A stretch of DNA of 64,000 nt from NCBI GenBank assembly GCA_965370315.1, contig CBDUTO010000003.1:13527-77526 (forward strand), given 5' to 3'. The notes under the pieces are model-generated. The model was not told where the DNA came from, did no database searches, and was given only the letters and a program-made list of their open reading frames with translations. Source of the stretch: an uncultured Melioribacteraceae bacterium (GTDB lineage Bacteria; Bacteroidota; Ignavibacteria; Ignavibacteriales; Melioribacteraceae). A program made the translations under genes and the position numbers. This document shows positions 5,443 to 22,571 of the stretch, in pieces (within the stretch, counting starts at the first letter, position 1; each line of letters opens with the position of its first letter).

Positions 5443-5767
5443 GTAAAACTCCTTTGTCGAGTTGTGGGTCGCATGTTACGAGTTGTGTTTGTTCAACTCC
5501 TTTTCAACAAATTAATTGTTCTATATTATTTTTTTTCCTTACAATGAATAAATATAAAGAAACAATTATTTTTATCCATAAGATAAATCTCATGGTTATT
5601 CAATTTGTTTTTCTGAATAATACAAAATAAATTCCCATATATGAATTGCCATACATGAATTGCCTTGTCTGAATAGCTATGCCTGAATAGCCATGCCTTT
5701 CAAGGCATGGAAAATAAATTATTAAAAATAATCAATTGGGTTTTAACCCTTCATGGTTCTCTCTTCA

Positions 5768-8700
5768 TCATTTATCCTTTCCCATAGTTCCAATTCTTTT
5801 TTCCAATTCTCTTATCTTAAGTTCTCTTCCAACAAACACTTTCATTGCTCTATCGAGTTCATTGTTTTTATCTTGTAATTCCTTTGTTCTTTCTTGAACT
5901 GTTTCTTCCAAATTTTCTTGGTAATCTGAAAGTTCTCTTTCAACCCGCTTGCGCTCGGTGATATCCCTAACAGTTGCGAAACTACATATTACATATCCTT
6001 TTTCATCTTTTATTTGAGAGGGGTTTACACTAACTGGGAATCTCTTCCCGTTTTTCCTTTTGAAAACTAATTCAAAGCTTTCAAAATTTCCTTGCGAAGT
6101 TTTTACAAATGCCTCTTGAATATTTTCATATTCCTCCTCGGGCCAGTATGGGTGTGGTGAACCAACCCCTATCAACTCTTCTTTCGCAAATCCAGTCATA
6201 TTGCAAAAAGCTAGATTAACATCTATATGAACACCATTATTATCCAATATCGAAAATCCATCCGACATAGATTCGATTATTTCTATTGAAAAATTTTCGC
6301 TTTCCCTCAGCTTGTCTTCCGTCAGCTTGCGCTCGGTAATGTCCTGAGCTACCCCACACATTTTAACTCGTTGCCCAGAATCATTATAAATAATTTTGCC
6401 ACTCGCTCTGACATAGCGTACCTCACCATCATTTTGCCTAACAATACGATGTTCTATATTATAAGGAGTTTCCCCTTTTAGTGCATCTTGAAAGGCTTTT
6501 TCAACACCCGGGGCATCCTCAGGATAAGCAATTGTCATCAATTCTTCACGCGTTATGCCAGATAATCGACAACCATGAATGCGTAACCAGTTTTCAGAAA
6601 ACGTCCATTCATCTTGGACAAGATCCCATTCCCATGCTCCCTGGTTAGAAATTTCTTCAGCCTGCAGTAATAATAATTGGCTCTTTTTTGTATCTTCCTC
6701 GGCTTGTTTCCTAACCACAGTTTCCCATGCAACATCGGCAAAACGCTGAATGCTATAGACATCGGATTCGTTATAATCTGATTTTTTATTTCCAACTCCA
6801 AGAACTGCCTTAATTTTATTCCCTCTAATAACAGGAACTACTAATTCACGCATAATTGGAGCATGTCCTTCGGGCAAACCTTTTTTGTGTGCTAAACTTG
6901 AATAGTCATTATGAATTACAGGTTTACGTTCTTTAACACAATCTACCCAAGCACCTGCTTTTGAGATGGGATAATGTCGAGTAGCTTCTCCTGATCCTTT
7001 ACACATATTATTTAATGTATTGGTAGACCATGTTTGGAGTGAAATGGATTCCTGATCATCTTCAACATAATGATAAAATCCAATATCGCTATTGGTGAGT
7101 TTTTCGGCCTCATCTAAGAATTTACGAAGCACTTCTTCTTCCGAATGATTAATCGCATATTCAAACATTTTTAATTCTACATCCAGAATTTTTTCTTCGT
7201 GCTTTCGTTCTGAAATATCTACATGGGTACCTACTATTCTTATGGCTATGTCCTTATCATCAAAAACTGCCTCAGCACGAGAAAGAATATCAACCCAATG
7301 ACCATCTTTGTGCTTCATCCTGAATTCCAATTCAAAACGATCACGTTCTTTGTTGATTACTTCTTGCTGCATTTTCCATGATTTTTTTGCATCTTCTGGC
7401 TCAATTAGTTTTTCCCATATAGAGAAATCATTTGGCAATTCATCCTCTTTATAACCCAACATATTCTTCCAGCTAGGGGAATAATAAATCTCGTTTGTTA
7501 CAAGATCCCAATCATACAAACCATCTTTTGTAGCATTCATTGCCAGCTCAAATCTTTCTTTACTATCTTTTAAATCTATTTCAGCCTGTTTACGTTCAGT
7601 AATATCAGTAGCCATGCTAATTACAACTTTTTTACCATCTGGTAACTCTCCTATCGGACTGGTGCTGAAATCCCAAAGACGATAACTGCCATCTTTAATT
7701 TTCACTTCCCATTCACCATCGTACTGTGTTTTATCAATTTTGTATAAATTTTCGATAAACTCTTTGTTCGGTACGGCATCTTTACCATATGCTTTTAATG
7801 TCCATTTTTTTATAGTTGGTATGTCATCAATAGTATATCCTGTCTGCTTAATCCACTCTTCAGATAATTGCAGCACTTTTCCATCCGAATGGATCATAAT
7901 TGGATATGGAGCATAAGTGATAGCGCGACGGAATCTTTCTTCGCTCTCTTTCAATTCTCGCTCTGAATTGATTTTTTCTGTTATATCTGTAATTATCATT
8001 CCTAGACCGTGCCCTACTTTAAATGCTTTCAGTAAAACATGCTTATTGCCAAATTTTGACTGTGGCATGATATCATTAAAAATTATTGGTTTCCCACTCC
8101 TAATAACTTCTTTATATTGATCATATCTTCCAGACTTCTCAACGTCTGGCGCTAGTTGCAATATATTTTTTCCAATAACACCTTTTCTTTTTTGTTGGGT
8201 CATTTTTAATGCTGCATCATTAATATCAACTTGATTTAGCTCTGAATCAAAAAGCATAAAACCATCTGTTGCAGAATCCATAAAGCCCCTTAATCTTTCC
8301 TCACTTACTTTTAACTCTTCTTCTGCCTTCTTTCTCGCTGTTACATCATCATAAATTGCTACTATATTATAGTTTGGCATCCTAAAAATTCTATTTTCAT
8401 AAAAATTAGAATAATTTTCATCAATATATACCTTAGCAGGGTACATTCTTGCAATACCAGTCTTCCATACTTCTCTAAATTCCGAGATTAAACCAAAGTC
8501 ATCAATATTGGGACGCAAATCAAAAAGACTTTTCCCTATCACTTCTTCTTTCTTTTTTTCTTCTAATTCCAATGATTTTTTATTAAAATTTTCAATAATA
8601 TAATCTTTACCAAATTCACCATCATTAATTACCTTATATATAGCTACACCACTATTTAGATTATTAAACAAATCTTCAAATATCTTTTTCCCTTTTGCTA

Positions 8701-9100
8701 TTTTTTCATTGGCCTGTTTTAGTTTGCCATCGCTTTCTATTTCCTTTACCACGCGCTTAATTACTTCAGGCAGCTTTTCAAGGAAGAGTATATCTTTTAT
8801 TAAATAATCCTTGGCGCCCAGCTTCATCATATCTACGGCTATGCGCTCATCGCCCTGTCCGGTGGTGATAATAAAAGGTGGCAGCGGAATTTGCTTCTTA
8901 TTTAGTGTTTCAATCAACTCTTTGCCATTTATATCGGGCAACGAATAATCAAGCAGCATCATGTCTGGTATTTGTTTTTTTAGATGTGTAAGCGCATCAG
9001 TACCTAAAGCAACACTCATCACAGAAAAACCCAATTCTTCTACTATTGTACTAATCAATTTGACTAATCCAGCATCGTCTTCTATCAATAAAATATTCAT
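5768..9100 (-). CDS. Response-regulator receiver followed by about six PAS domains and one GAF domain; no recognisable output domain
   Basis: 1110-aa ORF. N-terminal receiver MNILLIEDDAGLV...MMLLDYSLPDINGKE...GAKDYLIKD. Repeated PAS boundaries (...DITERK...EERF/LR...). GAF-like stretch FLDEAEKLTNSDIGFYHYVEDD...VVPVIRGNKIKAVLGVGNK. I see no H-box, GGDEF, EAL or HTH. It ends in a short coiled coil. Confidence 0.85.
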   Translation of the reverse strand: MNILLIEDDAGLVKLISTIVEELGFSVMSVALGTDALTHLKKQIPDMMLLDYSLPDINGKELIETLNKKQIPLPPFIITTGQGDERIAVDMMKLGAKDYLIKDILFLEKLPEVIKRVVKEIESDGKLKQANEKIAKGKKIFEDLFNNLNSGVAIYKVINDGEFGKDYIIENFNKKSLELEEKKKEEVIGKSLFDLRPNIDDFGLISEFREVWKTGIARMYPAKVYIDENYSNFYENRIFRMPNYNIVAIYDDVTARKKAEEELKVSEERLRGFMDSATDGFMLFDSELNQVDINDAALKMTQQKRKGVIGKNILQLAPDVEKSGRYDQYKEVIRSGKPIIFNDIMPQSKFGNKHVLLKAFKVGHGLGMIITDITEKINSERELKESEERFRRAITYAPYPIMIHSDGKVLQLSEEWIKQTGYTIDDIPTIKKWTLKAYGKDAVPNKEFIENLYKIDKTQYDGEWEVKIKDGSYRLWDFSTSPIGELPDGKKVVISMATDITERKQAEIDLKDSKERFELAMNATKDGLYDWDLVTNEIYYSPSWKNMLGYKEDELPNDFSIWEKLIEPEDAKKSWKMQQEVINKERDRFELEFRMKHKDGHWVDILSRAEAVFDDKDIAIRIVGTHVDISERKHEEKILDVELKMFEYAINHSEEEVLRKFLDEAEKLTNSDIGFYHYVEDDQESISLQTWSTNTLNNMCKGSGEATRHYPISKAGAWVDCVKERKPVIHNDYSSLAHKKGLPEGHAPIMRELVVPVIRGNKIKAVLGVGNKKSDYNESDVYSIQRFADVAWETVVRKQAEEDTKKSQLLLLQAEEISNQGAWEWDLVQDEWTFSENWLRIHGCRLSGITREELMTIAYPEDAPGVEKAFQDALKGETPYNIEHRIVRQNDGEVRYVRASGKIIYNDSGQRVKMCGVAQDITERKLTEDKLRESENFSIEIIESMSDGFSILDNNGVHIDVNLAFCNMTGFAKEELIGVGSPHPYWPEEEYENIQEAFVKTSQGNFESFELVFKRKNGKRFPVSVNPSQIKDEKGYVICSFATVRDITERKRVERELSDYQENLEETVQERTKELQDKNNELDRAMKVFVGRELKIRELEKRIGTMGKDK

Positions 9101-9131: not shown

Positions 9132-9563
9132 TTACAACTTCACCACTTGAATAAAAAGGCCTAATCTTTTTAATGTTTCTGCAAATTTTACAAAATCAAC
9201 TGGTTTGGTGATATAAATATTACAGCCCAGTGAATAACATTTTTCAACTTCGCGTGGATCGTCAGTAGTTGTAAGCATCATTACAGGAAGGTTTTTAAAA
9301 TCGTCATCGCTTTTTATTTGCTCTAGCACCTCTACGCCATTCATTCTAGGCATGTTGATATCGAGCAATAGTAGATATGATTTATTTTTGTCTAACACCA
9401 TATTTTTGCCTTTGCCCGAAATAAAATCCCAGATCTCTTTACCATCTACAAAGCGGATCATATGATTGCATATTCCCGAATCCTTTAATCCTGCCATAAT
9501 AAGCTCGGCATGTCCATCATCATCTTCGGCTATCAGAATTGTAAGTTCTTTGTATTTTTCCAT
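9132..9563 (-). CDS. Single-domain CheY-like response regulator
   Basis: MEKYKELTILIAEDDDGHAELI...LLLLDINMPRMNGVEVLEQIK...PVMMLTTTDD...GCNIYITKP. I place the start at the internal ATG (9563-9561), because the 19 upstream codons of the track ORF overlap the end of the preceding kinase gene. Confidence 0.85.
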   Translation of the reverse strand: MEKYKELTILIAEDDDGHAELIMAGLKDSGICNHMIRFVDGKEIWDFISGKGKNMVLDKNKSYLLLLDINMPRMNGVEVLEQIKSDDDFKNLPVMMLTTTDDPREVEKCYSLGCNIYITKPVDFVKFAETLKRLGLFIQVVKL

Positions 9564-9585
9564 AATTATTTTCCTTCTTAAATAT

Positions 9586-10740
9586 TTAAAATTCCGTAAA
9601 TGAATGACTGTGTAGTTCAATATAAAAAACAGAGCCTTTATTTTCTTCTGACTCGGCCCATACTTTCCCTTTGTGTTTTTCGGCTATTCGTTTCACCAGG
9701 CTAAGGCCAATACCTTCACCAGTTTTGCCCGAGCGGATGCCTATGCGGTAAAAAACATCCCAAATTTTTTCCAGATGCTTTTGTGCAATTCCTTTGCCAG
9801 TATCCCTAATGGTGTATACAACCTTACTATACGATTTTTTTGCGTCCACAGTAATTTCCAAAACTCGCTCCGAATCAGAATATTTCAATGCATTGCTAAT
9901 TATATTTGCGAAAAGCTGATCCAATAATGCGGCATCGCCAAAACATTTAGGTAGTGGATTAATATATATTTCGCATTGGGCTTCTTTTATCTGAAAATCG
10001 AGGCTTTGAAGTATTTTCGCAAACAGTGCGTTCATGTCAATTTCCTGAATGTTCATTTCTACTCTGCCAGTGCGCGATAGCTGAAGGAGACCGTTGATTA
10101 GATTATCCATTTTTTCGATATTGCTATGGACAAAACTAAGTGTTTTGGGAATATCTTCATCTGTAATAATGCCAAGTTGGTGAAGTATTTCCGGTTCAAG
10201 CGCTTTATCGGCGAAAAGGTTTTTTATTGAATCGGCTTGTTTTTCCAGCCGTTGGCTAAATCCCTGTATGTTCACCAAAGGTGTTCTAAGGTCGTGAGAG
10301 GCAACATAAAGGTAATTTTCCATCTCCTTATTTTTTGCCAAAATCATTTCCTGTATCTGCATCATTTCACTAATATCTGTGGTAATGGTGGCAAATTTTC
10401 CGGCTTGGGGCGAAACAACCGATATCATTAAATGCTTATCCAAAGGGGGATAAAAGGTATTAAACTCATGGGGATCTCCTCCCAGCGCAACCTTGGCATA
10501 CTCCTCCAGGTATGGTGGTGGAGTGGTTTGATAGACTTCGGTTGCTAATTTACCAATTGCATCTTCTTTGCTAATTCCTGTAATTTCGGTAAATACCTTA
10601 TTGCAATCGATAATGCGGTAATCAATAGCATCACCGGCAGTGTTTAGCACTAACTCGTGCATAACTACCATTTCGGTGAGGGAGGTGAATAAGGCATTTA
10701 ATTTTTCTTCACTTTCGCGGAGTGCGTCTTCTGCCAGCTT
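9586..10740. repeat. Copy 1 of a ~1.15-kb segmental duplication (partner 15478-16632)
   Basis: The last ~385 codons of the two kinases align without gaps. I counted 15 differences in the last 115 residues. DNA near the stops is nearly identical by eye. Similarity begins at the stop codons and fades upstream of ...ESEEKLNALF. Confidence 0.85.
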
Positions 10741-13095
10741 ACGCTCAGTAATAACCATTCCCAAAACAAAAAAGCTTTCTATTTTGCCATCAACAATATG
10801 TGGGATATAATTAGTTTCAAAAATTATCAATTCATTATTCTTAGTATGAGTTGTTCTATTTTCAAAACTGACAAACTCGCCTGAAAGTGCTTTTTTCATT
10901 TGAGGCAAGGCACGATTAAAAGTCTCTTCACCAATTACATCAATCACATCTTTTCCAATAATTCCGCTTTCGAATGGACTTCTATCGTAATAGTACTGAT
11001 TAACAAAAGTGTATTTCAAATCTTTATCAATCTGACTGATTAAAACTGGCAAATTATTAGTTATAGTACGAAGTTGTTCTTCACTTTCTTTTAATTCTTC
11101 TTCAGCTAGTTTGCGCTCGGTGATGTCATTAAATGAAATAGTTACATATTTTATGTTGGTGTTTTCATCAAAAACAAGTGACGCATTTACATTTACCCAT
11201 GTGATATATTTTCTTTCAGGACGTTTGATACCAATAAAGTATTCTGAAAAAGATTTCAATAAACTAAGTGCCTTGTTTACCGGATATTCTTCAAGGGGCA
11301 TATCTGTACCATCGTTTCTTACAAATCTCCACTGAGGGTCAATGGCCTTTTTCCCTTTCATTTGTTCAGTACTAAGCCCTAGAATCTCGCTTGCCTTAGG
11401 GTTGCTTAGTATTATACTAGTATCCGGAGCGTGAAGAACAACCCCGGTTCCTAAACTCTCCATTAGATTAAGATATTTTTCGTTGCTTTCTTCGGCTTTA
11501 TCTTTGGCGATAAGTAGTTCTTCTTCAATTTTTTTACGTTCTGAAATATCCTGAGCGGCACCCCAAAGTCTGGTGATTTTCCCATTTTCGTCCTTTATCG
11601 CTTCCCCATGTGCCCACATCCACCCATTACTTCTATCTTTTCTTATGGTTTTTAATTCAATGTTATAAGGAGTTCCAGTTTCCCCGGTTCTTGCAATTGA
11701 GCTTGATAATAATTCCCAACTTTCTTGAGTAAACAATTTTTGACTATCGTTTAATAGTGGAGGTGGGAAAGCGGGATCAAAACCATACATTTTGTATAAT
11801 TCTTTAGACCAGTTAACTCTATTTGTTGCTAAATCTAAATTCCAACTACCTATATGAGCTAATTTCTGTGCCCTTTCCATTTCTATTTCATTTCTCTCCG
11901 CCTTTTCTTTGGCATTAAGTAATTCGTTGGTGCGCTCTTTAACTTTTGATTCCAATACCTTATTTAATTTTTGTTTGCTTTTATATCTATTGTAAATTAA
12001 AAGCACTAATACAATTACCAGAATAGTAATGATAATAAGCAGATATAAAACATTTTGCTGTTTGTTAATTGTTCCTGTTTTTTCTTCCAGAATTTTTGTT
12101 TGTGATAAAATTTTATCCTTCTGATCTTGTAATAATTCGATTCCCTTATTAAGTTCTTCTTTCTGCTTCTCTGATTCAAGATACTGATCATCCAAAATAT
12201 TTTGCTGCTCTTGAATCTTTTGATCTTGTGTGCTAATATCTATTTGCTTCTCCTCGAGTAATTGTGACTGATTAGAAAGTGTTTTTTGCTGATCCTGAAT
12301 TTTTAGTGTTTGATTGTTAAGACTATCATTCTGGGCTAGCATTTGTCTGTCAAAACTATCTTTCTGGACTTGCATCTCCTGTGTCTTGCTTGTGATGGTA
12401 TGCTCGAGCCGTTTCAAATCGGTTTCAAGATTATCTGTATGTTTTTGAAGACTTCGCAAGCTTTGCTGACCTTCGCGATATAACGCTGCAACATCAATTT
12501 CAGTGCCTCCGAAAAGAACTAGATCATCCGTAAAACGAAGATTCTGGTTAATTATATTAGCCTTGTTTATTTCAAAATGAAGAGTTCCCTTTCCGCTCTC
12601 AATAAAATTAATCATGATCAATCGTTTATCCTGAAAACCATCGCTTATTAGGAGAATGTTTTTCCCTTCAATTTCGTCAAAAAGTTCAGTGATAGAATTC
12701 TCTTGGTCCTTTGTAATATAAATTAACTGTACACCATCAAAATTATCCAATGAAAGTTTTGATACTATATTAATAGGTTTTCCCTTGAGTGTTTTGGTGT
12801 TAGATAATATTTTCATCTCATTAAAAACATCTTTATCCTCACCTAGTATTAGAAATTGAAATTCGTTAATTGCCTCTTCGTTTTGCCACTCAATATTATT
12901 GGCAAAGTTGTAGATATAGGCTGTAATAGCTTCCTGACGTTCTAATGTTTGTGCGTTAATATTTGACGACTGCACAATAGAAAAGATAATTGCTATTTTG
13001 AAAACTTGAATTAATGGCTTCATAATTATTCCAATAAAATCCGTTATTTTATTCAATGATATGTTTTCGTAGTTATATGTACTAATTCTAAACAT
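9586..13095 (-). CDS. Sensor histidine kinase: signal peptide, periplasmic YfiR/DUF4154-like domain, Q-rich coiled coil, one TM, four PAS, HisKA, HATPase_c
   Basis: 1169-aa ORF; the start may instead be the ATG at 13023 (MKPLIQVFKIAIIFSIVQSSNINAQ looks like a signal peptide). DUF4154-like motifs: YIYNFANNIEWQ, FQFLILGEDKD, ILLISDG, LHFEINKANIINQNLRF. TM VLYLLIIITILVIVLVLLIY. H-box LYVASHDLRTPLVNIQGF; DTGKGI and GEGIGLSLV boxes. Confidence 0.85.
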   Translation of the reverse strand: MFRISTYNYENISLNKITDFIGIIMKPLIQVFKIAIIFSIVQSSNINAQTLERQEAITAYIYNFANNIEWQNEEAINEFQFLILGEDKDVFNEMKILSNTKTLKGKPINIVSKLSLDNFDGVQLIYITKDQENSITELFDEIEGKNILLISDGFQDKRLIMINFIESGKGTLHFEINKANIINQNLRFTDDLVLFGGTEIDVAALYREGQQSLRSLQKHTDNLETDLKRLEHTITSKTQEMQVQKDSFDRQMLAQNDSLNNQTLKIQDQQKTLSNQSQLLEEKQIDISTQDQKIQEQQNILDDQYLESEKQKEELNKGIELLQDQKDKILSQTKILEEKTGTINKQQNVLYLLIIITILVIVLVLLIYNRYKSKQKLNKVLESKVKERTNELLNAKEKAERNEIEMERAQKLAHIGSWNLDLATNRVNWSKELYKMYGFDPAFPPPLLNDSQKLFTQESWELLSSSIARTGETGTPYNIELKTIRKDRSNGWMWAHGEAIKDENGKITRLWGAAQDISERKKIEEELLIAKDKAEESNEKYLNLMESLGTGVVLHAPDTSIILSNPKASEILGLSTEQMKGKKAIDPQWRFVRNDGTDMPLEEYPVNKALSLLKSFSEYFIGIKRPERKYITWVNVNASLVFDENTNIKYVTISFNDITERKLAEEELKESEEQLRTITNNLPVLISQIDKDLKYTFVNQYYYDRSPFESGIIGKDVIDVIGEETFNRALPQMKKALSGEFVSFENRTTHTKNNELIIFETNYIPHIVDGKIESFFVLGMVITERKLAEDALRESEEKLNALFTSLTEMVVMHELVLNTAGDAIDYRIIDCNKVFTEITGISKEDAIGKLATEVYQTTPPPYLEEYAKVALGGDPHEFNTFYPPLDKHLMISVVSPQAGKFATITTDISEMMQIQEMILAKNKEMENYLYVASHDLRTPLVNIQGFSQRLEKQADSIKNLFADKALEPEILHQLGIITDEDIPKTLSFVHSNIEKMDNLINGLLQLSRTGRVEMNIQEIDMNALFAKILQSLDFQIKEAQCEIYINPLPKCFGDAALLDQLFANIISNALKYSDSERVLEITVDAKKSYSKVVYTIRDTGKGIAQKHLEKIWDVFYRIGIRSGKTGEGIGLSLVKRIAEKHKGKVWAESEENKGSVFYIELHSHSFTEF

Positions 13096-13108
13096 TTACA
13101 AATTCTCT

Positions 13109-15238
13109 TTAAATTCCTATTATTAAACTAGCATAAATAGAACGGCCACTACGTCCTGGAATAGTGTTGATGTTTCTTCTGATATATTCAGGATAGTATA
13201 TTTTCTCATTGAGCAGGTTTTTAGCATACATTTCTATTGTTATATCAGGATTATTCTCTGGGCTAAGGCCCATAAATTTTCTAATATTCAGGCTTATGTT
13301 AGCAGTAAGAAAATTATAAGATTTAGCATGTGGATTTGCATTAGGATATTTAGCACCAATATCATCTCCTTCACCATAATATGAGTTAAAAATTCCGAGT
13401 AGGAATCCTTTTGAAGGGTATTCATAAACAATTCCTGTTTTAAACATACTATTAGGCATTCCCATTGTTTGCTCAGAGCTTCCATCCCCAACCCAAAATT
13501 TACTGTAGGATAAGGAAAGACTTAAGTTTCTGAATAAATTGAATTTACCTTCGAGTTCAACGCCTTGTGTTTTCAATGAGCCTTTGTTGATGTATGTCGG
13601 AACTGCAAGTTTTTTTCCAACTTCGCCAACTGTAGCGTATACCAGACTATCGGAAGGCAAAGAACGAACTATTAAATTTTTTTCTTGATTTTGAAAAATA
13701 GTAGCCGTTAACAGAAATTTTTTATGTTTATAACTTATCTGAATTTCAGAAGTTTGAATTTTCTCTGGTTCTAATTCTGACCCTCCACCCGAAAGTGACG
13801 GCGGTGTATAAGAATTTATTATTTCAGAAATATTATACCGCTCTAATAAAGAGGGTGAGCGAAATGCTTGTCCATAAATAAGTTTTAAATAAAGTTTATT
13901 TTGCCAATGCATTACAACATTTACTCTTGGCACAAAACTCCATACAGGTGAAGCTGTTTTGTTAGCTTGTCCGCCAAGATCAATATGAATAAAGTTATAG
14001 GGTTCAAAACTGAATTGAAAATAAGCACTATACCAGTTCTCTGATTTTCCATCAGTTATCATAAATGGAGTCGTGTTAGTTTGTGTGTCAAAATCTGTAA
14101 ATCTACTCCCATCTGTTGTTTTGCTGTAAGAAGTATTATCCAGAAAGAAACGATTAAATACAGTACCGCCGATCATGCGTATTTTTTCTGAAAATTTTAG
14201 AGCTAAAGAAGCTTCAAATAAAAATCCATGTCCATCTTGGGTGCTGAGAATAGGGTTAAATAATGAATAAGAGGGTTGATCCCGTAAGGTTTTATTAAAA
14301 TCTGCGTGAATGTTTAATGCCCATTTATTATTCCATTTTTTATCATAAGCTAGACTTGCAAAATACTGAGAAAGATCAATTCTATTACCAAGTGGATTAC
14401 CCCATCTTGCACCACCACTCATATATTCAAAATTTGACTGAAGCCCTAAAAAATGTGCTTTAAATCCTTTGTATTTTGCTTCAAGCAATAGCGATTTGTC
14501 AGTATGATCCATTTGCATTGTTCTTGGTGGATTTACAACTGTTTCAACATCATCAATAAACTCCATGTCATTTTCACCTCTTGCTGTAAAATCCCAACCA
14601 TTGGTCTTATTCCAAACCACATTAGCTTTCAGACTTATTTTGTTTATTTTTTTTGATATCATTAAAGATGTTTGCCATGAATCAAAGCTACCATAGCGTA
14701 TTCTCGTAGAAGCCTCCAATTTTTCAGTTGCATCTTTGGTGATTATATGAATCACTGCGGTATAAGCATTTGAACCATAAAGTACAGAACCTGTACCTCT
14801 GATAATTTCAATTTTCTTGATGCTTTCAAGAGGAAAAATTTTGTAAATAAGACTGTTCGCACCATTGTTTACGCTTTCACGCAAAGGACTACCATTCAGT
14901 AAAATCAGTAGATGAGTATTGTAATGCGGTGTTACAGTTCCTCTTACTGCAAGTATACCATCAGGGAAAACAATTGTGCTTAATCCGTACATACTGGTAA
15001 CTCTGTCCAGCACTTCCAGAAGATTTAATGCTCCGTAAGATTTAATTTCTTTTGCCGTAATAATATTCATACTGGCTGGAGCCATAAAAAATTGTTCTTC
15101 ACTTTTTGAAGGAGTTGTAACTTTAATATTCCAGAGTGAGTCTAATGGAATAGAATAGATGTCCGTTATTTCTTGCGCCTTAACAATTTGAAGGATAGAG
15201 AAAACGCAAGTAACCAGAATGGTTATTCTAGTTCTCAT
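13109..15238 (-). CDS. TonB-dependent outer-membrane receptor
   Basis: 709 aa. Signal peptide, then plug motifs (MNIITAKEIKSYGALNLLEVLDRV, LLNGSPL, IKKIEIIRGTGSVLYGSNAYTAVIHIITK). A long alternating beta-strand region rich in Y/G/N/S follows. Confidence 0.85.
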   Translation of the reverse strand: MRTRITILVTCVFSILQIVKAQEITDIYSIPLDSLWNIKVTTPSKSEEQFFMAPASMNIITAKEIKSYGALNLLEVLDRVTSMYGLSTIVFPDGILAVRGTVTPHYNTHLLILLNGSPLRESVNNGANSLIYKIFPLESIKKIEIIRGTGSVLYGSNAYTAVIHIITKDATEKLEASTRIRYGSFDSWQTSLMISKKINKISLKANVVWNKTNGWDFTARGENDMEFIDDVETVVNPPRTMQMDHTDKSLLLEAKYKGFKAHFLGLQSNFEYMSGGARWGNPLGNRIDLSQYFASLAYDKKWNNKWALNIHADFNKTLRDQPSYSLFNPILSTQDGHGFLFEASLALKFSEKIRMIGGTVFNRFFLDNTSYSKTTDGSRFTDFDTQTNTTPFMITDGKSENWYSAYFQFSFEPYNFIHIDLGGQANKTASPVWSFVPRVNVVMHWQNKLYLKLIYGQAFRSPSLLERYNISEIINSYTPPSLSGGGSELEPEKIQTSEIQISYKHKKFLLTATIFQNQEKNLIVRSLPSDSLVYATVGEVGKKLAVPTYINKGSLKTQGVELEGKFNLFRNLSLSLSYSKFWVGDGSSEQTMGMPNSMFKTGIVYEYPSKGFLLGIFNSYYGEGDDIGAKYPNANPHAKSYNFLTANISLNIRKFMGLSPENNPDITIEMYAKNLLNEKIYYPEYIRRNINTIPGRSGRSIYASLIIGI

Positions 15239-15440
15239 GATTAATTCCTTTTAATGTGTTGTGCTTTATTTCATATTCGTGTTGGAAGCTACAAAGTTCT
15301 TCCGGTGTAGGATTGTCCGCTTGAAATACTTTGAGAATTACCGAAGTATTATCATGTTTTTGTACTCCCCTATATACCAGCGAACTTGAACTTTCACATA
15401 AGGTTACAGTTATTATATAATTTCGAATTCTCTTTTCCAT
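15228..15440 (-). pseudogene. 70-codon relic resembling the N-terminus of a Ser/Thr-protein-kinase-like domain
   Basis: MEKRIRNYIITVTLCESSSSLVYRGVQKHDNTSVILKVFQADNPTPEELCSFQHEYEI. It matches the start of the kinase-like domain of large kinase-AAA-GAF-histidine-kinase sensors (pattern ..S.VYRG.....N..VILK.....PTPEEL..F..EYEI). It stops after ~70 aa and overlaps the TonB-receptor start by 11 nt. Confidence 0.5.
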
Positions 15441-15477
15441 GATTTTTTTCCTTTTATATATTTCCTCTTTTAGCTTA

Positions 15478-16632
15478 TTAGAGTTCAGTAAATGAACGAT
15501 TGTGTAGTTCAATATGAAAAACAGAGCCTTTATTTTCTTCTGACTCGGTCCATACTTTCCCTTTGTGTTTTTCGGCTATTCGTTTCACCAGGCTAAGGCC
15601 AATACCTTCGCCGGTTTTGACTGAGCGTGGGTCGATGCGGTAAAAGACATCCCAAATTTTATCCAGATGCTTTTGTGCAATTCCTTTGCCTGTATCCCTA
15701 ATGGTGTATACAACTCTATTGTATGTATTTTTTGCGTTCACCGTAATTTCCAGTGCTCGTTCCGAATCAGAATATTTCAATGCATTGCTAATTATATTTG
15801 CAAAAAGCTGATCCAATAATGCGGCATCACCATAACATCCGGGTAGTGGATTAATATGAATTTCGCATTGGGCTTCTTTAATCTGAAAATCGAACCTTTG
15901 AATTATATTTGCAAACAGCGCGTTCATGTCAATTTTCTGAATGTTTATTTCTACTCTGCCTGTGCGCGATAGCTGAAGGAGACCATTGATAAGGGAATCC
16001 ATTTTTTCGATATTGCTATGGACAAAACTGAGTGTTTTGGGAATATCTTCATCTGTAATATTGCCAAGTTGATGAAGTATTTCCGGTTCAAGCGTTTTAT
16101 CGGCGAAAAGGTTTTTTATTGAATCGGCTTGTTTTTTCAACTGCTGGCTAAAACCCTGTATGTTCACCAAAGGCGTTCTAAGGTCGTGAGAGGTAACATA
16201 AAGGTAATTTTCCATCTCCTTATTTTTTGCCATAATTATTTCCTGTATCTGCATCATGTCGCTAATATCGGTGGTAATGGTGGCAAATTTTCCGGCTTGG
16301 GGCGAAACAACCGATATCAGTAAATGTTTATCCAAAGGAGGAAAAAAGTCAGTAAACTCATAGGGATCTCCTCCCAGTGCAACCTTGGCAAACTCCTCCA
16401 TGTAAGGTGGCGGATCGGTTTGATACACTTTGCTTGCTAATTTACCAATTGCATCTTCTTTGCTGATTCCTGTAAGTTCGGTAAATACTTTATTGCAATC
16501 GATAATTCGGTAATCGATAGCTTCACCAGCAGCGTTTTGAACCAGCTCGTTCATCACCACCATTTCGGTCAGAGAATTGAATAAGGCATTTAATTTTTCT
16601 TCGCTTTCTTTTAAGGCCTCTTCTGCTTTATC
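15478..16632. repeat. Copy 2 of the ~1.15-kb segmental duplication (partner 9586-10740)
   Basis: See copy 1. Confidence 0.85.
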
Positions 16633-17340
16633 TCTCTGGTTTTCTCTGGTTTTTATTTGCTCAAGCATATTATTAAAACTGTTGTATAAAACACCTATCT
16701 CATCAGTACTTCTACTTTCCAGACGTATTGTATAATCATCCTCCAAAGAAATTTTCTTTGCCGTGTCGGCCAGTGCAAGAATGGGCTGTGAGATTATTCG
16801 CTCTAATCTAAATGCAATAAAAAAAGCTATTAGTATCAATACAATTCCAATAAAGCCCTTTGAGATAATATTCGATCTTAAATCTTTATATAATTCAGCA
16901 GTGGATACTCTTAAATATATAGTACCTCTTATTTCTTCATTAAATTTGATTTTTCTAAAAATATGCAACCAATCATCTTCAAAAAAACTACTAATATCAC
17001 CAATTGGTAATTCAGGAATATTGATTAATTCTGTTCGATTATAGGAGGCAAAAACATGACCCTCCAAATCAAAGACATATCCATTATAAATAGTTGGAAT
17101 TGTTTCCAGTTTTGATAAATTAACATTTGCCTCATCATTATATCCAAAATCAAGAGGAGTGATACAATACTCGCTTACTAATTTTGCATTCAGCAATGAT
17201 TCACTAATCAGTTTATCTTTAGATGCTTCATGAGTTTTAATCAAATCTATCGTAAACCCAATACTTAACGACAGAATAGTTACCGATAAGATGATAAAAA
17301 TTAGTTTGTTTTTTATGGAAAGACTTTGAATTATTTTCAA
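15478..17340 (-). CDS. Sensor histidine kinase: TM, ~140-aa periplasmic loop, TM, HAMP, PAS, HisKA, HATPase_c
   Basis: 620-aa ORF. The track start is a TTG at 17340-17338 that overlaps the TGA of the upstream DUF4154 gene, and no in-frame ATG is nearby. H-box LYVTSHDLRTPLVNIQGF. The C-terminal ~385 aa are paralogous to 9586-10740. Confidence 0.9.
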   Translation of the reverse strand: MKIIQSLSIKNKLIFIILSVTILSLSIGFTIDLIKTHEASKDKLISESLLNAKLVSEYCITPLDFGYNDEANVNLSKLETIPTIYNGYVFDLEGHVFASYNRTELINIPELPIGDISSFFEDDWLHIFRKIKFNEEIRGTIYLRVSTAELYKDLRSNIISKGFIGIVLILIAFFIAFRLERIISQPILALADTAKKISLEDDYTIRLESRSTDEIGVLYNSFNNMLEQIKTRENQRDKAEEALKESEEKLNALFNSLTEMVVMNELVQNAAGEAIDYRIIDCNKVFTELTGISKEDAIGKLASKVYQTDPPPYMEEFAKVALGGDPYEFTDFFPPLDKHLLISVVSPQAGKFATITTDISDMMQIQEIIMAKNKEMENYLYVTSHDLRTPLVNIQGFSQQLKKQADSIKNLFADKTLEPEILHQLGNITDEDIPKTLSFVHSNIEKMDSLINGLLQLSRTGRVEINIQKIDMNALFANIIQRFDFQIKEAQCEIHINPLPGCYGDAALLDQLFANIISNALKYSDSERALEITVNAKNTYNRVVYTIRDTGKGIAQKHLDKIWDVFYRIDPRSVKTGEGIGLSLVKRIAEKHKGKVWTESEENKGSVFHIELHNRSFTEL

Positions 17341-17957
17341 TGTGTTTCTCCTTTCCGATAACCTACTATTTTAGCAATATTTCTCAAACGATAATCAACA
17401 TTAAATCCTTCATTAGTAATTGATGATTCATTTAATTCAAATCGAATTTTGTTTTTAAGTATGTAAAAGTTGATGTGAACACCATTTTCTCCAAAATTTT
17501 TGGTGTCTCCTAAAGTGAGTACTGATTTTCCATGTGTATTGGATAGTATATCGGCAAGTCTATTTTTTTCGGCACTTGAGATAAACAAAATATGACATTG
17601 ACCAATCTGATTGGGTTCTGTATAGTAACGGATTTCTACATTCTTATTTTTAATTTTATTTTTTTCTTTTTGATATGTATCTTCAAGAAGAGTTCCAAAT
17701 GGATTTTCACCAATAACACCAATAACGAAAGGTTCTGATTTATCGTTAATTTCAGACTGCTCAGGCCATTCAATATATTCAGAGATCTTTAAAAGCAAAA
17801 ATACCTTCACATCATATTCGCTTGTCTGACCATACATACTAATTGGCAATAAATAAATACTCATAAAGAGGAGCAAAACAATTGCCCACTTACAACGAAT
17901 CAAAATCGATGTTTCTTTAAAGTGATTAATTTGCATTTTATCTACCATAGTTAACAC
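17337..17957 (-). CDS. Stand-alone secreted YfiR/HmsC-like (DUF4154) protein
   Basis: 206 aa with an N-terminal hydrophobic segment. Motifs: FLLLKISEYIEWPEQ, FVIGVIGENPFG, ILFISSAEKNRL, VLTLGD, GVHINFYILKNKIRFELNESSITNEGF. These are the same motif series as the N-terminal domain of 9586-13095. Confidence 0.7.
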   Translation of the reverse strand: MLTMVDKMQINHFKETSILIRCKWAIVLLLFMSIYLLPISMYGQTSEYDVKVFLLLKISEYIEWPEQSEINDKSEPFVIGVIGENPFGTLLEDTYQKEKNKIKNKNVEIRYYTEPNQIGQCHILFISSAEKNRLADILSNTHGKSVLTLGDTKNFGENGVHINFYILKNKIRFELNESSITNEGFNVDYRLRNIAKIVGYRKGETH

Positions 17958-17972
17958 TCATTTATAGCATAA

Positions 17973-20333
17973 TTAAAAATTAATTTTAAATTTCATTCCA
18001 ATAACAATAGGCTCTTTTACAAATCCGCTCTGTCTGGGATATTGGCGGAGATTCCCCGGTTCCCAATATTGTATAACATAACGCACATTATTTACGCTTA
18101 TAATATTCATTGCAAATAATGATAACTCCATATTGAATGATTCAGAATCCACTTTCCAATTAACTGAAATATTTGACGTAAATGAATTTTCTCCATATCC
18201 GTGATCGTGTAAAGCATTGTATATCGCATTCATTTCATCTTTCGATTCCTGAGCTCCATAATTATCATGAACATCTTTAAAATTCATTAATAGATCTTCT
18301 TGTTGATAATCAAGACTCATTCTACAATCGAGATGAAGATTTAGATTATAGGGTAATTTTTGATTATAATAAAATTTGATAGAATGTACCGGCAGATTGT
18401 TAATTCTATTTTGTCCATAATCAGAAATATATATTTTATCAATATTTTCTGATCCTGTAGCAAGATTCACATCGACATATGCTTCTAGTTCAACTTCAGG
18501 TGTCCAGTTCAATTGATTGATAAATGAATAGCTTCCACTAAAATTGAAATTAGTATTTGTGTATTTAATTTCAGCATCGAATCCTGCTAATTTAAAAGTA
18601 CCAACTAATCCGGATTGATTTGTTGGAAGCCATGCAATCTGATCTATTGTATTATAATATCCAGAAAAATTAAAATTTAGATTTTTATTTTGCATTCTTC
18701 CATAAATAACTTCAAATCCCCTTAAAATCTCAGGGTCAGAAGAAGTTCCTGAAATGATATACTCTGAATACAAGTCACGAAATGTAGGAAGTCTTACAGA
18801 TTGTTGATAAATGACTTTAATTACATTTTTCTTGTTTAATTTATAGATCCAAGCTAAGCGGGGAGAAATTGCCCATTTTGAATATTTGTGTTTATCTGCT
18901 CGCCCAGAAATTAAGATTGTATTTTTGTCCGTAACATCAATATTTGCTTCAAAAAACCCTGACACAAAATTTGTCCTTAGTTGATCTTCAATCAGGCTGC
19001 AAAAATTACTTCCATATTGTTGATAAAATCCAGATGTAGTATCATAAACAGCAAATCTTATTGGAGCCTGGAACCCCAGAATAAAAGAATTGTCATCCAT
19101 TCCCCACTCTGGACCATAACTTTTATATACATATTCTCCACCTACTGCAAATCTATACTTTTCATTAAGATCAAAATTAAGCTGACTTTTTACAAACAAA
19201 TCACTTTCGGAAAATGAGTTGTTTCGTTGAGTAATATGATCAGATGGTTTATTAGTGCCCTGATAAAATGAAATATCCCTATGACTCTGTGACGAATATC
19301 CAAGTGAAGATTTGAGAGTTACAAATTGAGAGAAATGATGCTTGTTTTCAAAAACAGCAGTGAACTGTTTGTATAATAAGCCTGGAAAATCAGACCCATC
19401 GGCCGTTTCACTCTTTTGCTGTTGCTTAGTAAAATTAGATGATGTATATCTTGTCCAGAGACGAAATTCATTAAAAAACTCAACATCTAGTTGAAGTTTA
19501 ATTTCAGGTTTATCCCAATAATTTTCATAGAAGTTAGGAGCAGGAGTGCCGAGTCCCTTATTTCCCCATTCCGGAGACATAAAACCATAGCCATAACCAT
19601 GTGCCCTGTCAACATAGAAAAATTTTGGATTTTTTTGCCCTTTTGATAATGTGTAACTTCCTCGGATGAAAGCCTTAACATTCTCTGTATTATATCCATA
19701 GCTTGCACTTCCAATTCCATATCTATATCCCAAATTCCACTCCGTTGAGATAGTAAGCCCTTCAGAAGAGACGGCATTTTTTGTTTTAATATTTATGACA
19801 CCTCCAATTGCACCGGGACCATATGTTACCGATCCAGGACCACGGATTATTTCAATTGTTTCAATATCACCTAAATCTTTATTCAGCATTTCTGTTAATG
19901 GCTGCCCCATATATGCATCATTCATTCTTACACCATTTACAATAAGCATGTATGAAGAATTCATATCTCCAGATACTCCTCTAATGCCTATTCTTGGACC
20001 CAGCCAATGATTTACAAAAGTTGCAGAGGGCACATAAATTTCAATTAGATCAAACAGGTTTCTCGCCGAACTTACTGCAATATCTTCTTTTGTGATTACT
20101 GTAAATGAGACAGGGATATCAGAACGCTTCATTTCTGTAATAGTACCTGTAAAAACTTTAACTTCCATTAATTCTTCGAGAGACATATTAAAAAGTTTAT
20201 TGTATTTTTTCTCCTTTGTATCTTGAGCAATTATATGAATTGATTGTAACAAAAGAAAAACAACAAACAATAAAACAGGCATTCTTTCCAATACAGACAA
20301 AAGCAATTTTGATTTGTTTTGATTATTATTCAT
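17973..20333 (-). CDS. TonB-dependent outer-membrane receptor
   Basis: 786 aa. Signal peptide, MSLEELMEVKVFTG lead-in, plug (FTVITKEDIAVSSARNLFDLIEIYVP, NGVRMND, IETIEIIRGPGSVTYGPGAIGGVINIKTK), barrel ending ...KFKINF. A GGTGG Shine-Dalgarno-like sequence lies upstream of the ATG. Confidence 0.85.
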   Translation of the reverse strand: MNNNQNKSKLLLSVLERMPVLLFVVFLLLQSIHIIAQDTKEKKYNKLFNMSLEELMEVKVFTGTITEMKRSDIPVSFTVITKEDIAVSSARNLFDLIEIYVPSATFVNHWLGPRIGIRGVSGDMNSSYMLIVNGVRMNDAYMGQPLTEMLNKDLGDIETIEIIRGPGSVTYGPGAIGGVINIKTKNAVSSEGLTISTEWNLGYRYGIGSASYGYNTENVKAFIRGSYTLSKGQKNPKFFYVDRAHGYGYGFMSPEWGNKGLGTPAPNFYENYWDKPEIKLQLDVEFFNEFRLWTRYTSSNFTKQQQKSETADGSDFPGLLYKQFTAVFENKHHFSQFVTLKSSLGYSSQSHRDISFYQGTNKPSDHITQRNNSFSESDLFVKSQLNFDLNEKYRFAVGGEYVYKSYGPEWGMDDNSFILGFQAPIRFAVYDTTSGFYQQYGSNFCSLIEDQLRTNFVSGFFEANIDVTDKNTILISGRADKHKYSKWAISPRLAWIYKLNKKNVIKVIYQQSVRLPTFRDLYSEYIISGTSSDPEILRGFEVIYGRMQNKNLNFNFSGYYNTIDQIAWLPTNQSGLVGTFKLAGFDAEIKYTNTNFNFSGSYSFINQLNWTPEVELEAYVDVNLATGSENIDKIYISDYGQNRINNLPVHSIKFYYNQKLPYNLNLHLDCRMSLDYQQEDLLMNFKDVHDNYGAQESKDEMNAIYNALHDHGYGENSFTSNISVNWKVDSESFNMELSLFAMNIISVNNVRYVIQYWEPGNLRQYPRQSGFVKEPIVIGMKFKINF

Positions 20334-20490: not shown

Positions 20491-21663
20491 CTAATTAAAC
20501 TCATACTCAACTTTATTAAGTTTATACTTTTCTGGTTGTTTATAAATATCTAAGATCAAATTGCGATCAAAACTTTTTCTTACCTCTTCCCATTTGCTAC
20601 TTCCAGGTACTTTGTTTAATTCTTTTAGAAATCTGAATTCTTTATAGAGCAAACTATTAATTTGCGTATCATCTTCACTTGAAATAATAGAGTACTTTGA
20701 ATTATATCTGAGAATATCCTTCAGTGCCAAGTCGGCAATTTCTGCCGCAGTTAATATGCTTTTTTCTCCGCTCAACCTTTCAATTTCTATTAAATTAAAA
20801 TCAGATGCGGCAAGCAAATTAATTCTATCAGCTTTTAACCAGTTAATTGCTCTGATAACAGCAGCAAGAATATGATTAACAACCTCATAATTTTTAGCTG
20901 CAAATTCTTTTAAAAAATATAAATATCCAGTGGATATTCTTTTAAACGTTATAAAATTTTTTGGATAGAGTTTTTGAGATGAAGCCACAATTGGTTCCCA
21001 TGCAGAGAAGAGGTCAATCTCATTATTATGTAATGCATTTGCCATAGATGTAACATCAAGGGGAATTAAACTCACATCGTTTTCTTTAATTCCTTCACCT
21101 TGCAATAAATCTAAAAGAAAATAATGTGATATCGATCCTAAAGGATACCCAATTCGCTTCCCCTCCAAATCATTTGTTAGCATCGGCTTTCTTGAAACAA
21201 TAGAAACATTACCCTTCTGTAAGAGTACTGGAATTAGAATATCAAAATTTGAGGATGCGGATAATGCAGGCATATCCCCACCAACACCGGCAACCAGTTC
21301 TTTTTGTTTCAGAAAACAATTAAGATCTGCACCTTTTAAATATGGAAAATATGCGATTCTCTTTCCTAATAGTCTCAGTTCTTGCTTTAGAATTTTATCC
21401 CGTTTTATAACTTCAAAGATAATTCCGGTAGGTAAGTATAGAGGTTGGAAACCAATATTTATTGTTGAGTCATTATTATAAATGTATTGGGAATAAATAG
21501 GATGATTTTGTATATCCGGTTGTTGAATTAGAGAACTCACTTCCGTTTTATCATTCACTGATAAAAAAAAGACCATTGCTGTAGTTCCAATCACAATAAG
21601 TAATAGAACAATGTTTCTAATTTTAATTTTGGGAAGAAGCAATTTATTATTGTTAAAAATCAT
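20491..21663 (-). CDS. Membrane-anchored periplasmic-binding-protein-like protein (NMT1/SsuA-TauA-type fold suspected)
   Basis: 390 aa with an N-terminal TM (IVLLLIVIGTTAMVFFLSV). The body has the typical two-lobe binding-protein pattern (IGFQPLYLPTG..., GDMPALSAS, LEGKRIGYPLGSISHYFLLDLL, IDLFSAWEPIVAS). The family assignment is tentative. Confidence 0.5.
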   Translation of the reverse strand: MIFNNNKLLLPKIKIRNIVLLLIVIGTTAMVFFLSVNDKTEVSSLIQQPDIQNHPIYSQYIYNNDSTINIGFQPLYLPTGIIFEVIKRDKILKQELRLLGKRIAYFPYLKGADLNCFLKQKELVAGVGGDMPALSASSNFDILIPVLLQKGNVSIVSRKPMLTNDLEGKRIGYPLGSISHYFLLDLLQGEGIKENDVSLIPLDVTSMANALHNNEIDLFSAWEPIVASSQKLYPKNFITFKRISTGYLYFLKEFAAKNYEVVNHILAAVIRAINWLKADRINLLAASDFNLIEIERLSGEKSILTAAEIADLALKDILRYNSKYSIISSEDDTQINSLLYKEFRFLKELNKVPGSSKWEEVRKSFDRNLILDIYKQPEKYKLNKVEYEFN

Positions 21664-21701
21664 GTTTCCTCTATATTCTCAAATTTATTTATCTAAATCA
21701 A

Positions 21702-22526
21702 TCACCTTTTCTTATAAATCTTACACTCTTTATTAGTTCTATTAAATTTATTCTTATATTTTTCAGGTAGCTCTTCTGCTTCGCCTAAAACTAGATACCC
21801 ACCTGGATTTAATGCACGGTACAATTTTTTATATATAATTTCTTGAAACTCGGTATTGAAATAAATTAATAGATTACGACAGAGAATAATATCAAAGCTG
21901 CCATATATGCTTTCAGGAGGAAAATACGATTTTGTATCGAGCATATCAAACTCTGAAAAACTGACCATCTCCTTTATTTCAGATTTCAATTGAAACACAT
22001 TTACTCTTGTATTAAAATATTTTTCTAATAAGTGGTATTTTATACTCTTAATACTTTCAAAAGAATAGATACCTTCTGCTGCTGATTTTAGTGTTTTCTT
22101 ATCAATATCCGTTGCAATTATTGTTGTAATTAAATTCAAGCCTTCCTTTTTAATTATTTCATTTATAAGAATCGCTATAGAATATGGTTCTTCTCCAGCA
22201 GCACAACCTGCTGACCAAACACGCAAGGGAGAATTATTTGATTTAATTTTTTCTATGATCAACTTTGGTAATATATAATCAGCAATAAATTCAAAATTGA
22301 ATGTATTTCTAAAAAACCTGCTCACATTTATTGTAAGTACATCAATTAGCTTATCTAGCTCCAATTCGTTTTGTTCAAGATACTTGTGGTACTCATTTAT
22401 ATCTGAAGAAATAGTTGCAAAAATTCTTTTATCAATACGTCTATTAATCATGGCAGTGCGGTTCCCAGAAAAATCAAGTCCACGTTTTAATTTAAGATAT
22501 TGTAATATGTTAGTTGCATTAGTCAT
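21702..22526 (-). CDS. cheR: CheR-type protein-glutamate O-methyltransferase
   Basis: 274 aa. CheR_N-like segment (LDFSGNRTAMINRRIDKRI..., INVSRFFRN). SAM-binding core LRVWSAGCAAGEEPYSIAILI, ATDID, FDIILCRNLLIYFN. Confidence 0.85.
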   Translation of the reverse strand: MTNATNILQYLKLKRGLDFSGNRTAMINRRIDKRIFATISSDINEYHKYLEQNELELDKLIDVLTINVSRFFRNTFNFEFIADYILPKLIIEKIKSNNSPLRVWSAGCAAGEEPYSIAILINEIIKKEGLNLITTIIATDIDKKTLKSAAEGIYSFESIKSIKYHLLEKYFNTRVNVFQLKSEIKEMVSFSEFDMLDTKSYFPPESIYGSFDIILCRNLLIYFNTEFQEIIYKKLYRALNPGGYLVLGEAEELPEKYKNKFNRTNKECKIYKKR

Positions 22527-22571
22527 ATAAATCAGTTAGATATTGATGCCAAATTATTTTTCACTTACTCC

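Follow-up and report, generated by a model that had tools for sequence, protein, structure and literature searches.

Two neighbouring gene cassettes on a 64,000-nucleotide stretch of DNA from an uncultured Melioribacteraceae bacterium (contig CBDUTO010000003.1; the whole stretch is 'the window' below) each combine a plain TonB-dependent receptor, a DUF4154 (YfiR-like) module and a sensor histidine kinase. We favour, with moderate confidence, a reading in which the receptor of both cassettes works with a YfiR-fold periplasmic domain that controls an inner-membrane signalling enzyme, the whole forming a widespread module. The wiring so described is YfiBNR-type periplasmic switching with a TonB receptor as the outer-membrane partner and a kinase as the output; it is widespread and experimentally unexplored. 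Adjacency of receptor, DUF4154 and sensor genes is conserved across phyla, with interchangeable kinase or GGDEF outputs.

Cassette genes, domains and receptors

Both cassettes lie on the minus strand. In cassette 2, the gene for the TonB-dependent receptor TBDR2 (17973-20333; 786 amino acids) is followed after 15 bp by a gene for a stand-alone secreted YfiR-like protein (17337-17957; 206 amino acids), the stop of which overlaps by 4 bp the TTG start of the histidine kinase HK2 (15478-17340; 620 amino acids). In cassette 1, the gene for the receptor TBDR1 (13109-15238; 709 amino acids) precedes that for HK1 (9586-13095; 1169 amino acids), which comprises a signal peptide, a DUF4154 head, a coiled-coil stalk, one transmembrane (TM) helix, four PAS domains, HisKA and HATPase. 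A REC-only (CheY-like) response regulator lies 22 bp past HK1 (9132-9563; Pfam Response_reg E=2e-18, no output domain). The gap between TBDR1 and HK1 is 13 bp, or 85 bp with the methionine of MKPL (13023) as start; this methionine, ahead of the signal peptide, is the probable true start. Open reading frame (ORF) calling reproduced the coordinates of all six genes, both gaps and the overlap, and together with Pfam agrees with the genes, spacings and domains given in a first-pass annotation made from the letters, including its placing of the receptor gene first in both cassettes.

The assignment of both modules to DUF4154/YfiR, proposed in that annotation, is borne out by profile hidden Markov models (HMMs): PF13689 matches the stand-alone protein over the full model (E=3.5e-32) and amino acids 58-192 of HK1 (12520-12924; E=4.5e-20). 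The receptor assignments hold as well, with a Plug domain in TBDR2 (E=3e-17) and TBDR1 (E=5e-13); the barrel is recognised by Pfam in TBDR1 (E=1e-26) and, with none found by Pfam, via TIGR01783 in TBDR2 (aligned over residues 72-606). An AlphaFold2 model of the stand-alone DUF4154 protein (pLDDT 91.5) was compared with the Protein Data Bank (PDB) using Foldseek, in which the best matches are the YfiR structures 4zhu, 4xjy and 4yn7 (target-normalised TM-score 0.72, E ~1e-7), followed by a single-domain substrate-binding protein and amino-acid-binding ABC substrate-binding proteins. YfiR is also the sole match in a profile search of PDB sequences with DUF4154. The single-domain substrate-binding protein, from Rhodothermus, is a relative by fold only; its paper links it neither to receptors nor to YfiR.

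HK2 consists of TM1, a weakly matching periplasmic CHASE8-like domain, TM2, a clear HAMP domain, PAS, HisKA and HATPase (Pfam). The E. coli yfiR-dgcN-yfiB locus encodes DUF4154 (YfiR), CHASE8 plus GGDEF (DgcN, also called YfiN or TpbB) and OmpA-like (YfiB) proteins by the same profiles. When the N-terminus of HK2 is aligned with those of DgcN and of eleven sensors encoded downstream of stand-alone DUF4154 genes at other loci, CHASE8 is matched by 13/13 of the sequences and HAMP by 12/13. The HK2 N-terminus also aligns at 27% identity (E=2e-24) with the N-terminus of a CHASE8-HAMP-GGDEF-EAL protein of a Nitrospiraceae genome (locus L007), the gene for which is preceded by receptor and DUF4154 genes. 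At the level of sequence, cassette 2 is thus a putative YfiR/YfiN-type pair, with the HK2 sensor falling within YfiN's CHASE8 family at family level. The analogy with YfiBNR drawn in the first-pass annotation is in this respect stronger than had been supposed there.

The receptors are plain. Plug was found in all 13 cassette receptors tested (TBDR1, TBDR2 and 11 from other loci) and STN or CarboxypepD_reg in none (STN, PF07660, at E<=1e-3), which agrees with the earlier observation that neither window receptor has a FecA-type extension; only ~30 residues separate signal peptide and Plug in TBDR1 and TBDR2. The window's other receptors (52016-54730, 58901-61144) carry CarboxypepD_reg, and both cassette receptors are atypically plain for a Bacteroidota-like genome. 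After the signal peptide TBDR2 has the motif NKLFNMSLEELMEVKVFTGT, and the N-terminal motif of TBDR1 is TDIYSIPLDSLWNIKVTTPSK. A motif with the consensus DIYDLxLEQLxxxKITSASK is common to TBDR2 and 39 cassette receptors, and we read it as a putative TonB-box region with a conserved leader. TBDR1 is 80% identical to a receptor fragment upstream of an HK1 orthologue (locus L019).

Conservation, stalk and genomic setting

A full-library phmmer search with amino acids 25-241 of HK1 recovered 2,422 clusters at E<=1e-3 (127 at E<=1e-30). For 145 of the best 150 a representative was retrieved, and 125 of these reach a length of 450 amino acids or more and carry DUF4154 at the extreme N-terminus. For the neighbourhoods of this fused type, a metagenome scan gave 80 loci, of which 65 were eligible; their ORFs were called and classified with HMMs built for the analysis. 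A receptor gene lies immediately upstream on the same strand in 48/65 (median gap ~10 bp), a frequency far above chance: receptors account for 5% of the remaining long ORFs at these loci, and the binomial P is ~3e-34 even if the background is set at p=0.1. The receptor is upstream but divergent in 3 further fused-type loci and just downstream in ~5 (2 of them among the 65). Outputs are kinases in 54 cases and GGDEF domains in 8, with a receptor upstream in all 8 of the latter (e.g., L079, L084). A REC-only gene follows 30/50 of the fused-type kinases and is often followed in turn by a hybrid kinase.

Homologues of the stand-alone type occur in many phyla, and a genome scan with a narrower DUF4154 alignment (A3) gave 14 loci. 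In loci from both genomes and metagenomes, the gene after DUF4154 nearly always encodes a CHASE8-type kinase, usually with a 4-bp overlap, and in two loci a large hybrid kinase instead. A receptor adjoins the DUF4154 gene in ~14/18 informative loci, three other loci ending at contig ends. Plain TonB receptors lie directly upstream in L003, L004, L007, L011, L012, L014, L057 and L101-L105, and downstream in L008 and L016; loci with adjacent receptors span Zixibacteria, Bacteroidota, Acidobacteriota, Nitrospirota and Syntrophorhabdaceae. The complete order of receptor, YfiR-like protein and kinase with this N-terminal domain is found in cassette 2, L003, L004, L012 and L101-L105. Adjacency of DUF4154, receptor and kinase genes at no more than chance frequency, which the first-pass annotation had listed as telling against its proposal, is at odds with both censuses.

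Several loci have features of their own. In L106 (GCA_030635125.1 DAOVZL010000009.1, 5561-20567), one pair of DUF4154 and CHASE8-kinase genes sits amid an array of at least 6 genes for plain TonB receptors, of which two are upstream of the pair and four are downstream. A CHASE8 hybrid kinase gene in L002 (Aminicenantes CP070627.1, 7001-14212) comes after a tandem pair of stand-alone DUF4154 genes, and TolB, TonB, ExbD and ExbB genes lie immediately downstream on the opposite strand. In Zixibacteria OY760907.1 (L001/L003), Thoeris-like defence genes for a ThsB TIR protein and a ThsA Macro protein, together with a transposase gene, lie immediately downstream of the cassette (~10478-11916 in L001). 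Locus L078 contains a 693-aa ORF (239-2320) that matches both receptor and DUF4154 HMMs; it may be a genuine fusion, or else result from read-through or misassembly where receptor and DUF4154 meet. Apparent split or stand-alone forms of the fused type (L017 and L019, from a word-indexed search with the HK1 head that gave 12 matches, mostly fragments) proved to be frameshifts within one reading unit and were not counted as natural fission.

In the fused proteins, DUF4154 is followed by a conserved linker (LLGGTEIDVAALYREGQQSLRSLQK), a proline-free, glutamine-rich helical segment and a single TM helix. The corresponding stalk of HK1 (amino acids ~196-348; 12052-12510) starts with the linker GGTEIDVAALYREGQQSLRSLQK, contains no proline and has a hydrophobic periodicity of 3.5 residues that was matched by 2/2000 shuffles; the TM helix follows at amino acids 349-367 (11995-12051; mean Kyte-Doolittle value of 3.6 in a 19-residue window). 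Among 103 family representatives, the distance from linker to TM helix has a median of 156 amino acids and falls within 128-178 in 83; 59 of the 103 lengths belong to one residue class modulo 7, so that stalk length is quantised in heptads. In an AlphaFold2 model of HK1 amino acids 25-400, a single uninterrupted helix (construct residues 178-375) leads from the linker into and through the TM segment. An alpha-helix rises ~0.15 nm per residue, and the Gram-negative periplasm is of the order of 22 nm wide. The predicted HK1 stalk of ~150 residues would thus measure about 22 nm, of the order of the periplasm of Gram-negative bacteria in general, and a stalk conserved in this way could place the DUF4154 head at the outer membrane. 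Such a stalk, of about the length of the periplasm, is newly described here for the fused family. HK1 also lacks a CHASE8 domain (Pfam), with DUF4154 in the place of the sensor, and by its domain content is not a fusion of YfiR with a YfiN-like partner. Since HK1's own periplasmic sensor is DUF4154 on a long stalk, the mode of action must differ in some respect between the two cassettes. The closest relative of HK1 (L019; 75-90% identity) is without the segment that bears three of the four PAS domains, and PAS number therefore varies quickly in this lineage.

The two kinases are related chiefly through their C-terminal ends. The last 386 amino acids of HK1 and HK2 are 86% identical, and the underlying PAS-HisKA-HATPase block is duplicated at 89.3% nucleotide identity over 1182 nucleotides, with one copy at the 3' end of HK1 (9555-10734, minus strand) and the other at the 3' end of HK2 (15445-16626, minus strand), each reaching ~30 nucleotides beyond the stop. 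The two DUF4154 modules are only 21% identical, and TBDR1 and TBDR2 ~30%, essentially in the Plug domain only. Set against the 86% of the kinase ends, these values show that the sensing halves diverged anciently and that the DUF4154 modules and receptors of the two cassettes represent old subfamilies. The 1.18-kb block alone is a recent copy, which points to a domain-level duplication or gene conversion between otherwise unrelated kinases. The first-pass annotation had taken fusion in one cassette and fission in the other as Rosetta-stone evidence; that argument stands between the two families and fails as a recent event between paralogues. Side-by-side pairing of both cassette types recurs at least once outside the window, in L057 (metagenome contig Ga0209991_10000982, 3-6493), which contains a fused DUF4154 kinase, a REC-only gene, a receptor, a stand-alone DUF4154 gene and a gene for a CHASE8 protein.

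Both cassettes are enclosed in a 24-kb cluster of signalling genes on one strand (flanks 1255-9100 and 20491-24368). Downstream lie genes for a REC-PAS-GAF-PAS protein without output domain (5768-9100) and for a hybrid kinase of 1395 amino acids that bears several REC domains (1255-5442); cassette 2 is preceded by genes for an NMT1-like binding protein (20491-21663), CheR (21702-22526) and a PAS protein (22572-24368). None of these flanking genes is conserved in the related loci, and the NMT1-like, CheR and PAS genes were therefore treated as outside the module. Scans for promoters and terminators gave hits at or below shuffle expectation and are silent on operon boundaries. Elsewhere in the window, type IX secretion system sorting domains are present, which mark the host as Bacteroidota-like, a 389-aa protein (24919-26088, plus strand) contains two tandem adenylate kinase domains, and a 1044-aa ORF with no Pfam match at E<=1e-5 (48864-51998, minus strand) lies directly downstream of the CarboxypepD_reg-type receptor at 52016-54730.

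Proposed mechanism and alternative explanations

For cassette 2 we propose, by analogy with YfiBNR, that YfiR corresponds to the secreted DUF4154 protein and the YfiN sensor to the CHASE8-HAMP region of HK2. Free DUF4154 would bind CHASE8 and set the activity of the kinase. The receptor, in the role of YfiB, would capture or release DUF4154 as its own state changes, for instance when it is occupied by ligand or when the N-terminal segment with the TonB box becomes exposed. In cassette 1, the DUF4154 head would be the kinase's own sensor, and its ~22 nm stalk would be long enough to bring it to the periplasmic side of the outer membrane. On contact with the receptor, a signal would travel along the stalk and the single TM helix to reach the PAS and kinase domains. 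Contacts of DUF4154 with the receptor or with CHASE8, the sign of the regulation, the ligand and a regulator common to both kinases are inferred. The residues right after the phospho-accepting histidine are identical in HK1 and HK2, so the two kinases may well serve the same regulator, and the duplicated block as a whole probably points to a shared phosphotransfer partner. Both kinases, with their near-identical phosphotransfer modules, would probably signal to the regulator at 9132-9563, which would in turn feed a larger phosphorelay; as this regulator is REC-only, the cassette is unlikely to be a plain transcriptional loop.

A number of observations weigh against this proposal. Models of NCBIfam release 20 for a trio of associated families are among the top matches of all three cassette 2 proteins, yet all scores are below cutoff: 110.8 bits (cutoff 125) for the stand-alone DUF4154 protein with NF053591 (TOL_0243 family YfiR-like periplasmic protein), 148.3 bits (cutoff 194) for HK2 with NF053592 (sensor histidine kinase, YfiR-like protein-associated; HK_near_YfiR_like), and 81.9 (TBDR2) and 83.5 bits against a cutoff of 645 with NF053590 (TOL_0244 family TonB-dependent receptor). 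The CHASE8 score of HK2 taken alone (22.7 bits) is under the Pfam gathering score of 27. An alignment with E. coli YfiR shows that, of the cysteines forming the YfiR disulfides, one (in GCHILFIS) is retained in the stand-alone type and none in the fused type, and that the second pair is absent; YfiR's reported redox control need not apply, since these cysteines are not conserved. In ~15-25% of all loci there is no adjacent receptor, namely in the stand-alone loci L002, L005 and L010 (L006 probably has none either) and in 12 fused-type loci. Lastly, the receptor array of L106 is no less compatible with regulation or substrate sensing than with contact signalling.

The main rival holds that the receptor only imports a substrate, which DUF4154 (half of a substrate-binding-protein fold) then binds and thereby modulates CHASE8 in cassette 2 or its own kinase in cassette 1, with no contact to the receptor. 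This resembles the Bacteroides hybrid two-component systems that sense SusC-imported oligosaccharides, and we consider it a possible if rather unlikely account of the cassettes. The rank of substrate-binding proteins directly after YfiR among structural matches speaks for it, as do the several receptors around a single DUF4154-kinase pair in L106 and the loci that have no receptor next to them. It leaves unexplained a heptad-quantised stalk of ~150 residues that keeps the head far from the inner membrane, and the tight operon coupling of receptor and DUF4154, with its median gap of ~10 bp, exceeds what co-regulation needs. Moreover YfiR, the one characterised relative, works mainly by protein-protein sequestration (PMC4655355).

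A second rival is that the receptor is a regulatory target only: the two-component system would control the adjacent receptor gene, as PfeS/PfeR does PfeA, and DUF4154 would be an accessory regulator in the periplasm that responds, as in YfiBNR, to some unrelated cue from the envelope. The shared orientation and probable co-transcription of the genes favour this view, and a kinase surrounded by receptor genes, as in L106, would suit such control. We nevertheless judge this improbable, given that the regulator next to HK1 lacks a DNA-binding domain, that REC-only genes recur after the fused-type kinases, that some outputs are GGDEF or GGDEF-EAL and not directly transcriptional, and that the receptor gene stands first in the operon rather than behind a separate target promoter. 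Chance or purely historical adjacency, which the presence of at least 4 TonB receptor genes and many kinases in the window might suggest, is refuted by the recurrence of adjacent receptors in both types of locus across several phyla against a 5% background, and its probability is negligible.

Relation to known systems

The YfiR-receptor-kinase association is named in NCBIfam. The first-pass annotation had proposed an undescribed module; the NCBIfam trio NF053590/91/92 shows that the association had been named, while the absence of an experimental description was not contradicted by what we found. NCBI curators independently recognised the genomic association of receptor, YfiR-like protein and kinase, at least for the Thalassolituus-type branch. 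The trio derives from the gammaproteobacterium Thalassolituus and shares with cassette 2 the three-gene architecture and its order; the window cassette is Bacteroidota-like and represents a more distant branch, since all three scores are below cutoff. The models carry names only, and none covers the fused type. The only paper on TOL_0244 that we found reports its 7-fold induction on the n-C28 alkane, treats it as a transporter and does not mention its neighbours (PMC6304351). Searches of the literature on DUF4154, YfiR-like proteins, YfiR with TonB, TOL_0243/0244 and CHASE8 gave no description of this wiring in a library that is incomplete and so does not prove its absence, and a 2022 census of c-di-GMP (cyclic di-GMP) sensory inputs mentions neither YfiR nor TonB. 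P. aeruginosa PA2070-PA2072, considered as such a cassette, was rejected: PA2071 is FusA2.

Few routes from the outer membrane to the cytoplasm are understood (FecA-type, Rcs, YfiBNR and SusC-linked sensors). Thousands of protein clusters in many phyla share the simple wiring described here, in which a plain TonB receptor is joined by a YfiR-fold domain and by a kinase or diguanylate cyclase. Should the receptor prove to be the sensor, many TonB receptors now listed as transporters would have a second role as signal inputs, and YfiR-type sequestration would be a general mechanism and not a peculiarity of c-di-GMP signalling.

YfiBNR (HmsCDE) is an established system close to the cassettes, and sequestration by YfiR is its main mechanism (PMC4655355). 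Both cassettes share with it a periplasmic protein or domain of the DUF4154/YfiR fold, an outer-membrane partner and a tripartite logic that spans the envelope; cassette 2 also shares a YfiR-type gene directly upstream of, and overlapping, the gene for an inner-membrane enzyme with a putative CHASE8-HAMP sensor. The differences lie in the partner, the output and the cysteines. With the YfiR equivalog model (NF053586) the window protein scores 32.3 bits against a cutoff of 85 and is not an equivalog. YfiB is an OmpA-family lipoprotein encoded last, whereas the cassettes encode a 22-strand TonB-dependent receptor first, and Pfam detects no OmpA-domain (YfiB-like) gene between 5768 and 22526. The YfiBNR output is a GGDEF diguanylate cyclase, whereas both window proteins end in HisKA-HATPase. 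In cassette 1, unlike YfiBNR, DUF4154 is within the kinase and CHASE8 is missing.

FecA-FecR-FecI likewise has a TonB-dependent receptor as the outer-membrane element of a trans-envelope route. Its receptor has an STN domain, unlike any of the 13 cassette receptors, and the cassettes' output is His-Asp phosphotransfer or c-di-GMP; neither a FecR-like anti-sigma factor nor an extracytoplasmic function (ECF) sigma factor was detected by Pfam among the nine neighbouring proteins scanned. The PfeSR-PfeA type differs in its DNA-binding response regulator, that at 9132-9563 being REC-only. SusC/SusD loci with hybrid two-component sensors share with the cassettes a Bacteroidota-like host and a receptor linked to a kinase that senses the periplasm. 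They differ in a SusC with CarboxypepD_reg, in SusD, in a Reg_prop/Y_Y_Y sensor and in an AraC output, all of which are wanting in the cassettes, where the sensors are DUF4154 or a CHASE8-like domain. Beside FecA/FecR/FecI and the SusC hybrids, we tentatively suggest a third widespread class of TonB-receptor-linked signalling, in which a YfiR-fold head, either a free shuttle or mounted on a ~22 nm stalk, may read a plain receptor and pass the signal to kinase or c-di-GMP outputs, the stalk serving as a ruler matched to the width of the periplasm.

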